Assembly: GCA_016839945.1 (NCBI GenBank) | Contig: JAEOTE010000006.1 | Coordinates: forward strand, 1-9,300 | Length of the DNA stretch: 9,300 nt | Source of the DNA: Candidatus Heimdallarchaeota archaeon | Lineage (GTDB): Archaea > Asgardarchaeota > Heimdallarchaeia > Heimdallarchaeales > Heimdallarchaeaceae | Direction: 5' to 3' | Translations under genes and position numbers: made by a program | The notes under the pieces: generated by a model | Database searches by the model: none | What the model saw: only the letters and a program-made list of their open reading frames with translations | Told to the model about the DNA's origin: nothing | In this document: piece after piece, positions 4,025 through 4,184 of the stretch | Layout: each line of letters starts with the position of its first letter | How positions within the stretch are numbered: position 1 is the stretch's first letter

Positions 4025-4027
4025 TCA

Positions 4028-4056
4028 GACAACATCTAGTTGTGTGCTAGATGGTC
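4028..4056 (+). other. Extra stem-loop between the closing helix and 5S segment B: gac-aa-catctag-[ttgtgtg]-ctagatg-gtc
   Basis: Perfect 7-bp inverted repeat catctag (4033-4039) / ctagatg (4047-4053), plus gac (4028-30) / gtc (4054-56) across a 2-nt aa bulge. It has no counterpart in canonical 5S rRNA. Confidence 0.55.
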
Positions 4057-4059
4057 GGG

Positions 4060-4123
4060 AAAGTTAAGGCCTTCCACGTGTGGCTTTGTACTAAGTTCCG
4101 CGAGGGCTTGGGAACAGCCGTTC
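4060..4123 (+). rRNA. Segment B: equivalent of the 3' two-thirds of a 5S rRNA (loop B 3' side, helix II 3' strand, helix V, loop E, helix IV, loop D)
   Basis: aaagttaagg matches the archaeal GAAGUUAAG loop B motif. ccttccac is the helix II 3' strand with a bulged C. ggct (4082-4085) pairs with agcc (4116-4119) as helix V. ttgtact / gggaac matches the loop E GUAC / GGGAAC signature. aagttc (4093-4098) pairs with gggctt (4104-4109) as helix IV, with loop cgcga. The following gttc resembles the ..CCCGGUUCGCCGCC 3' end of the Haloarcula 5S as I recall it. Confidence 0.8.
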
Positions 4124-4141
4124 GCTGCGATGCGTCGCGGC
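4124..4141 (+). rRNA. Helix I equivalent closed into a hairpin: 6-bp stem gctgcg/cgcggc with 6-nt loop atgcgt
   Basis: Hand-paired: g4124-c4141, c4125-g4140, t4126.g4139, g4127-c4138, c4128-g4137, g4129-c4136; loop 4130-4135. In a normal 5S these two strands are the free 3' and 5' ends. An alternative register (4117-4120 with 4138-4141 plus 4123-4125 with 4132-4134) also yields a closed hairpin. Confidence 0.65.
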
Positions 4142-4184
4142 CATAGTGAAGGGGTAACACTCAGACTCATTCCGAACCTGAAAA
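4142..4184 (+). rRNA. Segment A: equivalent of the 5' third of a 5S rRNA (loop A, helix II 5' strand, loop B 5' side, helix III, loop C)
   Basis: GGCCAUAGUGAAGGGGUAACACUCAGACUCAUUCCGAACCUGA closely follows the archaeal 5S consensus GGCCAUAG-(helix II)-ACAC-CnnGA-CUCAUUCCGAAC-nnnG. Helix III is tcag (4161-4164) paired with ctga (4178-4181). Confidence 0.8.

Follow-up and report, generated by a model that had tools for sequence, protein, structure and literature searches.

In Thermoproteus tenax and T. uzoniensis, the signal recognition particle (SRP) RNA is encoded by a permuted gene whose leader and trailer form a bulge-helix-bulge (BHB) motif; cleavage of this motif by the splicing endonuclease EndA in vitro, sequencing reads across the junction and a circular, functional RNA were all demonstrated (PMC4731332). 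Archaeal 16S and 23S ribosomal RNAs (rRNAs) are excised by EndA at a BHB in their leader/trailer stems and ligated by RtcB, with the circle persisting in the ribosomes of some lineages (PMC7758197, PMC12918454), whereas a recent paper states that 5S rRNA lies outside this pathway of excision and circularisation (PMC12918454). Here we analyse a 9,300-nucleotide (nt) stretch of DNA from a Candidatus Heimdallarchaeota archaeon (contig JAEOTE010000006.1, positions 1 to 9,300; hereafter the window), in which a circularly permuted 5S rRNA gene is located, and compare this locus with its relatives across the class Heimdallarchaeia.

A first-pass annotation, made from the letters of the window alone, had proposed that a duplicated TCAGAC hexamer lets the closing helix of this element adopt an alternative, BHB-like fold that might be cut by the splicing endonuclease. 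Building on the observed gene permutation, motif geometry, covariation and enzyme genes, we put forward with moderate confidence the interpretation that window positions 4015-4194 are the primary transcript of a permuted 5S rRNA gene, that this transcript is matured through a split BHB-type motif by EndA and RtcB, and that its product is probably circular.

A circularly permuted 5S rRNA gene

The window locus is a circularly permuted 5S rRNA gene. The linear Rfam model of 5S rRNA (RF00001) fits only its 3' half well (4060-4133, 22.8 bits), and no further 5S match was found in the window's genome, which is 88% complete. The halves of the gene are swapped and the natural 5S ends are joined through helix I. 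The 3' part comes first (4063-4130, on the forward strand like all features of the locus) and comprises, according to the Rfam alignment and RNAalifold, the 3' side of loop B, the 3' strand of helix II, helices V and IV and the 3' strand of helix I. It is followed by a UGCG tetraloop (4131-4134) capping helix I (4124-4130/4135-4141) where a normal 5S rRNA has its ends, and then by the 5' part (4135-4181), with the 5' strand of helix I, loop A, helix II, native helix III and loop C (4165-4177). The hallmarks of 5S rRNA are all present in this order, including helices I-V, loops A-E and the conserved sequences of loops C and E, and all five helices covary in the permuted arrangement (31 pairs, 18 with compensatory changes; RNAalifold on 22 loci). 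Native helix III is formed by UCAG 4161-4164 and CUGA 4178-4181; its pair 4161:4181 is U-A in 24 and C-G in four of 28 distinct rows from the window's family, and is never broken.

The same 200-nt locus occurs in 29 of 30 genomes of this family, the Heimdallarchaeaceae. A permuted covariance model (R1) built from 22 family loci matches 80 of the 83 class genomes over its full length, with matches in each of the seven families, and the linear Rfam model exceeds its cut-off in only two of 61 genomes; the genomes sampled are metagenome bins, and related genomes are non-independent samples. Neither of the two linear matches is a convincing normal gene of this lineage: one, just above the cut-off (G033:C90), is neither a tandem nor a normal gene, being a single permuted unit with a marginal fit, and the other (L088, described below) lies on a contig that is probably foreign. 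Helix I is capped by a loop of 3-7 nt in nearly every locus across families, mostly UNCG-like (families f1, f2, f6 and f7) and a triloop in f5. Our search of the literature found no published permuted or circular 5S rRNA in Asgard archaea.

One locus of family f7 (L145; G077 contig 510, 3680-3949) contains two permuted 5S units in tandem, 44 nt apart, the first of which has a mismatch in the decoy strand defined in the next section (ACGG against UCGG). Read across the boundary between units, such a tandem equals a gene of normal order with a BHB intron, an equivalence that hints at how the permutation arose. In addition, 18 bacterial contigs (L035, L038, L041, L044 and 14 other loci) match the degenerate pattern CTTGGGAA-N-TGC-N-GCGGCCATAG; these contigs show no similarity to the permuted 5S core, and their matches are probably due to chance or to closely spaced tandem 5S genes.

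A bulge-helix-bulge layout at the permuted ends

Flanking sequences taken from 43 divergent loci share a common layout in families f3-f7. From 5' to 3', the leader reads as one strand of an outer helix h' (5-13 base pairs, bp), a 4-nt strand H', 2-3 nt and GUUAAG; the trailer reads as H (the final four nt of the 5' part of the 5S, equal to the 3' strand of helix III), followed by 3 nt (AAA, AUA or AUU) and the other strand of h'. Directly upstream of GUUAAG, the leader-side bulge B2 of these families is AAA, AGA, UAA or AA plus G, and the A/U-rich 3-nt bulge on the trailer side stands at an identical register in every family f1 and f3-f7. Within this BHB layout, H' is a decoy copy of the native 5' strand of helix III.

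The two strands change together between loci, as CCGG, CUGG/CCAG, CCGY/GCGG, CGAG/CUCG, CAAG/CUUG, CGGA/UCCG, CGGG/CCCG and CCAG/CUGG (H'/H). Over 58 distinct mini-substrates of fixed register, 90.6% of cells are standard pairs, against 55.5% in shuffled controls and 27-48% in slid registers; the registers were picked for each sequence from a few candidates, which slightly favours pairing, and are nonetheless uniform within each family. Double-sided changes are seen in 14 of 14 motif pairs of these mini-substrates. Across the class, pairing is seen in 93.5% of the H cells, and each of the four H pairs covaries.

The rule for cutting a BHB, which sets tRNA introns at position 37/38, puts each cut behind the second base of the bulge. 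Applied here, it predicts the junctions CCGG-AA|GUUAAG in f4-f7, CUGG-AU|A-GUUAAG in f3 and, with the proximal cut discussed below, CUGA-A(A)|A-GUUAAGG in the window. In f3-f7, and in the window with the proximal cut, cuts at the bulges would thus yield the normal helix III junction of 5S rRNA (Rfam consensus CggAAguUAAG).

The outer half of the motif in the window

The fold described by the first-pass annotation is confirmed, with all of its coordinates. TCAGAC is present at 4025-4030 and again at 4161-4166; CCTAGTAAGG at 4015-4024 is the exact reverse complement of CCTTACTAGG at 4185-4194; and leader UCAG 4025-4028 can pair with CUGA 4178-4181, leaving AAA 4182-4184 bulged. In the unconstrained minimum free energy (MFE) fold of 4005-4205, 15 pairs join 4014-4028 to 4178-4195 and are broken by a single 3-nt bulge (-70.1 kcal/mol, z = -3.1; 0 of 200 shuffles are equally stable). 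ACA 4029-4031, given by the annotation as the unpaired segment, is indeed unpaired and belongs to a longer stretch, ACAA 4029-4032, between the distal H' and a hairpin (4033-4039/4047-4053). The repeat of the hexamer was rejected as evidence in itself: the window holds six copies of TCAGAC where 4.0 +/- 2.2 are expected, and at least six occur in 56 of 200 shuffled sequences. It is conservation that sets the leader copy apart from a random repeat.

In terms of the class-wide layout, the leader strand of the outer helix h' (4015-4024, CCUAGUAAGG) forms a perfect 10-bp complement with the trailer strand (4185-4194, CCUUACUAGG) and is contiguous with UCAG 4025-4028, which holds the same register as H' in f3-f7 and which we term the distal H' copy. 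The window therefore has a 4-bp H, a 3-nt bulge on the 3' strand (B1, AAA 4182-4184) and a 10-bp h' contiguous with the distal H, all features of the canonical motif. On the opposite strand the distal H' is followed by four unpaired nt leading into the hairpin rather than by a closed bulge, and the proximal H' copy described below is followed by AAA 4060-4062. The probable 3' cut site in B1 is 4183|4184, or 4182|4183 in the proximal register.

Comparison of 28 distinct family loci indicates which parts of this arrangement are maintained. Nine of the ten pairs of the outer helix show double-sided changes; the leader C, A and G are invariant and the A that follows is at least 90% conserved, while C4030 is not conserved. 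What relatives retain of the duplicated hexamer is thus (N)CAGA and not the full TCAGAC, along with the register of the 3-nt bulge (f1 and f3-f7). The first base of the leader copy is U in 20 rows (19 U-A pairs plus a U.A in L084), G in four, A in three and C in one, and the distal pair 4025:4181 is accordingly U-A in 19 rows, C-G in one and unpaired in eight; the 4-bp helix of the annotation holds for the window, and its fourth pair is broken in those eight rows. The native helix III partner follows 4181 perfectly, unlike the distal leader copy. The counterpart of ACAA in relatives is 3-5 A-rich nt (ACA-A, AGAUA, AAA-G, UAA-G) in which only the first and third A are conserved. Extension of the outer helix by a 4025:4184 pair was also considered and set aside, the pair being formed in only about half of the family rows.

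L084 (G025 contig 43, about 238914-239098) is the second 5S copy of its genome and looks degenerate, with CCUAAAA in place of CCUGAAA, one G lost from CUUGGGAA and mismatches in helix I; it is possibly a pseudogene.

A family-specific insertion and a second H' copy

The window's family keeps the motif register seen elsewhere (H = CUGA 4178-4181, a 3-nt bulge and a contiguous h' of 10-13 bp), with one conspicuous difference: its H' lies 33-35 nt (34-35 in most) upstream of GUUAAG, as opposed to 2-3 nt in other families. The helix found by the annotation is this family's counterpart of the outer half of the motif seen across the class, and the leader half has been split by a lineage-specific insertion of ~30 nt for which no aligned counterpart exists between H' and GUUAAG in f3-f7. 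The insertion consists of the 3-5 A-rich unpaired nt, the hairpin, 2-3 variable nt (GG in the window), a second H'-like sequence (U/A)C(R)GG and AAA. The hairpin (4033-4053; stem 4033-4039/4047-4053, loop UUGUGUG) has 97.9% of its stem cells paired, three of seven pairs with double-sided and three with one-sided changes. A proposed homology between this f1 hairpin and the leader hairpin of the g7 loci was discarded, the latter (AUCAAC-UACG-GUUGAU) being a different element.

The second H'-like sequence, here the proximal copy, reads UCGGG (4055-4059) in the window and can pair with CCUGA 4177-4181. It is followed by AAA 4060-4062, which abuts GUUAAGG at the position of B2 in f3-f7 and is the probable leader-side bulge and 5' cut site. 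Pairing of C(R)GG with CCUG (4177-4180) yields four standard pairs in 27 of the 28 family rows, the exception being one degenerate copy, and at 4057:4179 half of the rows (14) have A-U and the other 14 G.U, a variation compatible with pairing. Two further pairings of this region were rejected. A contiguous h' for the proximal motif (GGU 4053-4055/ACC 4184-4186) can be drawn in the window but shows no covariation in relatives; and a pairing of CGGG with loop C (UCCG 4171-4174, present in the MFE) would be broken by the A variant at 4057, which leaves pairing with U4179 intact.

The closed genomes of Heimdallarchaeum aukensis and H. endolithica each carry two 5S genes, one of them window-like. 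The second copy has no distal UCAG and instead combines a contiguous leader, GUGGU-CAGG-AAA-GUUAAG, with the trailer CCUG-AAA-AC(C/U)AC.

In 20 of the 30 family precursors, no more than 0.2 kcal/mol separates the distal fold from the free MFE. Compared with the distal fold, the proximal one is less stable in most precursors, by up to about 6 kcal/mol, and equally or slightly more stable in four; the native fold differs from the distal fold by at most about 7 kcal/mol, one way or the other. With the three folds commonly within about 0-5 kcal/mol of one another, thermodynamics was not accepted as an arbiter between them.

Candidate processing enzymes

The window's genome encodes RtcB (546.6 bits) and two divergent EndA paralogues of 183 amino acids (91.6 and 42.8 bits, 23% identity), each with both EndA domains (G000 contig 55, 5543-6094, forward strand; contig 9, about 4932-5483, reverse strand). 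The stronger, catalytic EndA is closest to the catalytic chains of the (alpha-beta)2 enzymes of Aeropyrum pernix and Pyrobaculum aerophilum, and K39 in its loop region GKPIGVRKPQ aligns with K44 of the Crenarchaea-specific loop (CSL) of A. pernix. In that enzyme K44 of the CSL is tied to broad substrate specificity, and relaxed motifs are cut efficiently only by (alpha-beta)2 and epsilon2 enzymes (PMC6379350). A catalytic subunit that resembles the crenarchaeal enzymes of broad specificity, with a CSL-like lysine, makes it plausible that the two-subunit enzyme cleaves a relaxed or split motif such as that of the 5S transcript.

Proposed maturation of the permuted transcript

We propose that the transcript, in the order 3' two-thirds, tetraloop-capped helix I and 5' third, would have its new termini within the AA-bulge of helix III, where the BHB-type motif would bring them together. 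A leader H' would temporarily displace the native 5' strand of helix III by pairing with CUGA 4178-4181, and the fold of the first-pass annotation (h', AAA bulge and UCAG/CUGA) would present the 3' cut site. The two H' copies would pair with CUGA alternately, the distal copy, beside the strong outer helix, offering a true bulge at which the 3' cut is made, and the proximal copy a bulge beside GUUAAGG for the 5' cut. The two-subunit EndA would then cut both sites, RtcB would join ...CCUGAA(A) to AGUUAAGG..., and CUGA would switch back into native helix III, leaving a product of normal 5S sequence. Since helix I is closed by a short loop, with no spacer to trim, the ligated product would most simply stay a circle of about 120 nt, and the mature 5S rRNA is probably such a covalently closed circle. 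In this scheme the assignment of each H' to its cut, the precise places of cutting (+/- 1 nt), the ligation and the circularity are inferred. The annotation had already suggested that ligation would circularise the RNA and let CUGA return to helix III, a suggestion that gains support from the class-wide register and covariation of H and H' and from the EndA and RtcB genes.

The same observations (a register that recurs class-wide with covariation, and a genome encoding both EndA and RtcB) favour the annotation's broader claim of a splicing-endonuclease substrate; its placement of the leader cut at ACA 4029-4031 finds no such support. On sequence comparison, a 5' cut at 4060-4062 is more likely than one at ACA, because f3-f7 and the second Heimdallarchaeum copies have their leader bulge directly before GUUAAG, because a distal cut would give Heimdallarchaeum two different 5S species, and because two natural mini-introns share the layout bulge-hairpin-H'-bulge.

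The first of these mini-introns lies in a permuted 5S locus of family f5 (L169; G049 contig 30, about 19188-19217). It is a 30-nt BHB mini-intron in loop C, with H = UCCG/CGGG, bulges AAA and AAC and a 6-bp hairpin; without it the gene reads CAUUCCGAA|CCCGG, identical to that of a sister genome, so that L169 would be a 5S gene both permuted and intron-bearing. The second interrupts an archaeal 5S gene of normal order (L088, 1501-1638, reverse strand; G016 contig 117; Rfam 48.3 bits), where a 23-nt BHB mini-intron sits at the helix III AA-bulge (CACG-GAA-[CAGUCU AUCG AGACUG]-CGUG-AAA-GUUAAAC), in the same -1 register as CCUG-AAA...CGGG-AAA-GUUAAGG of the window. We know of no report of introns in 5S genes. 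The L088 gene adjoins a tRNA with a 46-nt intron. A search of 301 genomes of the phylum turned up no relative, and the remaining g1 genomes searched lack the gene; L088 is probably a foreign contig in its bin.

Weighing the proposal against its alternatives

Several observations weigh against the proposed scheme, in addition to the selection of mini-substrate registers mentioned above. The inner helix h is in relatives at most GUU/AAC, 3 bp whose strands are both invariant 5S sequence, which makes the motif one of the relaxed kind (HBh' or bulge-helix-loop, BHL) and not a strict hBHBh'. Covariation within the family proves neither H' copy: of four lineages with an A-to-G change at 4181, only one has a distal pair 4025:4181 that follows it, and the proximal helix varies on one side only. 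The proximal motif lacks a contiguous h' in most family members, so that B1 would sit at a three-way junction in the proximal conformer. Finally, CUGA can pair with only one of its distal, proximal and native partners at a time, which also excludes simultaneous pairing of the two H' copies; the energies of the three folds differ little, and we know of no precedent for an EndA that alternates between two conformers. As to the second outer helix that the first-pass annotation had sought in vain, it is indeed absent here: the canonical h does not form in the window, where 4032 and the positions after it are unpaired with 4177 and those before it. The gap is accounted for by the relatives, in which this helix is at most GUU/AAC or the native stack, and by the split of the leader half in the window; the native AC/GU together with the helix II stack may supply it.

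The alternative that survives best, though we consider it unlikely, is processing through the proximal copy alone. It invokes a three-way junction whose components are H = CCUG/C(R)GG (or CUGA/UCRG), AAA 4060-4062, AAA 4181-4184 and the hairpin acting as h'; the outer helix would merely tie the transcript ends together, UCAG 4025-4028 would be a relic of the tandem duplication or intron that made the permuted gene, and its pairing with CUGA would be incidental or only a folding trap. That Heimdallarchaeum copy 2 does without any distal UCAG, that the g7 loci read UAAG/UAAC at the matching leader position and that eight of 28 rows break the fourth distal pair all speak for it, as do the introns of L088 and L169, which present bulge-hairpin-H'-bulge as a working layout in such genes. 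Yet one would expect decay of a functionless relic, like that of the g7 leader, and the leader CAG(A) is instead invariant in the 28 family rows while the adjacent outer helix and spacer vary; it also sits exactly at the H' register relative to the h' and 3-nt bulge of all other families, and the distal fold is usually the most stable.

The annotation's own model, in which a BHL is cut in AAA 4182-4184 and in ACA 4029-4031, appears improbable in its literal form. The distal motif is the best-formed half-site, combining a 4-bp H and an h' of 10 bp with a true bulge of 3 nt; the hairpin begins 3-5 nt after H' and could mimic an inner helix h, and EndA enzymes of the (alpha-beta)2 class accept relaxed BHL motifs (PMC6379350). 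Such cuts would nevertheless retain ~32 extra nt inside helix III (the hairpin plus GGUCGGGAA, or A-A-hairpin-GGUCGGGAAA as read in the circle) as an expansion of its bulge, and would leave Heimdallarchaeum with two different 5S species from its two gene types; they also disregard the placement of the 5' cut beside GUUAAG in f3-f7 and a spacer after H' that is not fixed at 3 nt. In a one-step version the conserved C(R)GG-AAA is left unexplained. A two-step version would remove the extra piece through a second BHB (H = CCUG/CGGG, bulges AAA/AAA, hairpin as h'), and what remains after the first ligation does resemble the L169 and L088 mini-introns, but the h' of this second step is contiguous in only about 8 of 28 family rows.

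Processing without splicing enzymes, by which other RNases would trim an ordinary processing stem to a linear, permuted 5S rRNA nicked in the helix III bulge, can draw on the facts that archaeal 5S rRNA is not known to circularise (PMC12918454), that a bulge nick with a capped helix I could be structurally tolerable and that permuted organellar 5S molecules are on record (PMC4267664), but it seems very improbable given a BHB geometry that covaries across seven families, of which a generic processing stem needs nothing, an encoded RtcB able to join the ends that EndA products bear, and the circles produced from the same layout in Thermoproteus SRP RNA.

Returning to the split-motif proposal, a more specific form of it would make CUGA of the Heimdallarchaeaceae a three-state switch, pairing in turn with the distal decoy, the proximal decoy and the native partner, and would have circular 5S rRNA at work in the ribosome; this we offer tentatively, as a rather doubtful extension. 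A more radical variant would have two 5S isoforms, one of which keeps the hairpin as an enlargement of helix III.

Flanking features

Directly 3' of the trailer helix is an oligo-T run (4195-4200), from its sequence a probable archaeal terminator; a T-run after the trailer helix recurs in most g1 loci. On the other side, a divergent tRNA-Ser(GCU) gene (3806-3890, reverse strand, 54.9 bits) lies ~125 nt upstream of the 5S leader. The spacer between the two is very A/T-rich and contains a TATA-like sequence, AAAGATTAAAAATAA (3982-3996), ~20 nt before the leader helix.

Discussion

The termini of permuted 5S genes carry a covarying splicing-type motif throughout Heimdallarchaeia, which suggests a testable EndA and RtcB pathway and predicts circular 5S rRNA for the one rRNA thought to stand outside the archaeal cut-and-circularise pathway. 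Were the three-state switch true, it would mean that the ribosomes of eukaryotes' closest archaeal relatives work with a circular 5S rRNA. In practical terms, nearly every Heimdallarchaeia genome searched has a 5S gene that standard tools overlook, and the permuted model offers a route to its annotation. The split motif of the window's family, with two competing decoys and an inserted hairpin, is a twist not seen in permuted tRNA or SRP RNA genes; it constitutes a natural test of how far a broad-specificity endonuclease tolerates departures from the strict BHB, and bears on how permuted genes may arise from intron-bearing ones. The two-paralogue EndA with its CSL-like segment likewise bears on the proposed descent of the eukaryotic Sen subunits from an (alpha-beta)2 enzyme.

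We know of no BHB/EndA pathway in organelles. Permuted organellar 5S rRNAs, as reported by Valach et al. 2014 (PMC4267664), resemble the locus in being permuted and missed by standard models, and differ from this archaeal locus in being encoded by mitochondrial or plastid genes. The large archaeal rRNAs share the enzymes invoked here; 16S and 23S genes are of normal order, however, and ligation joins their natural ends, whereas in the present case ligation is needed to create a normal 5S rRNA. Permuted tRNA genes (Cyanidioschyzon merolae, green algae, Thermofilum pendens) have the same order as the window locus, with a leader, the 3' half, an intervening sequence, the 5' half and a trailer (PMC3978253). 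They are matured by the route proposed here, but RNase P and tRNase Z afterwards open their circles again at the acceptor stem (PMC3978253), whereas the loop on 5S helix I, 3-7 nt long, leaves nothing to trim, and re-opening is therefore not expected.

[quoted passage not shown] Where a relaxed intron has one H' strand, the window has two competing H' copies, and the native strand of helix III is a third candidate for the same pairing. The closest precedent is the SRP RNA of Thermoproteus, also a universal non-coding RNA with swapped halves that had been missing from annotation, whose leader/trailer BHB is cut by a heteromeric endonuclease and whose functional element is restored by ligation (PMC4731332). 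That gene is permuted in two crenarchaeal species and has a contiguous BHB; here the permuted RNA is 5S rRNA, the permutation extends over a whole class, and in the window's family a 30-nt insertion, with a second copy of the pairing strand, interrupts the leader half of the motif. For SRP RNA, cleavage and circles are experimental findings; for the Heimdallarchaeia 5S they are predictions.

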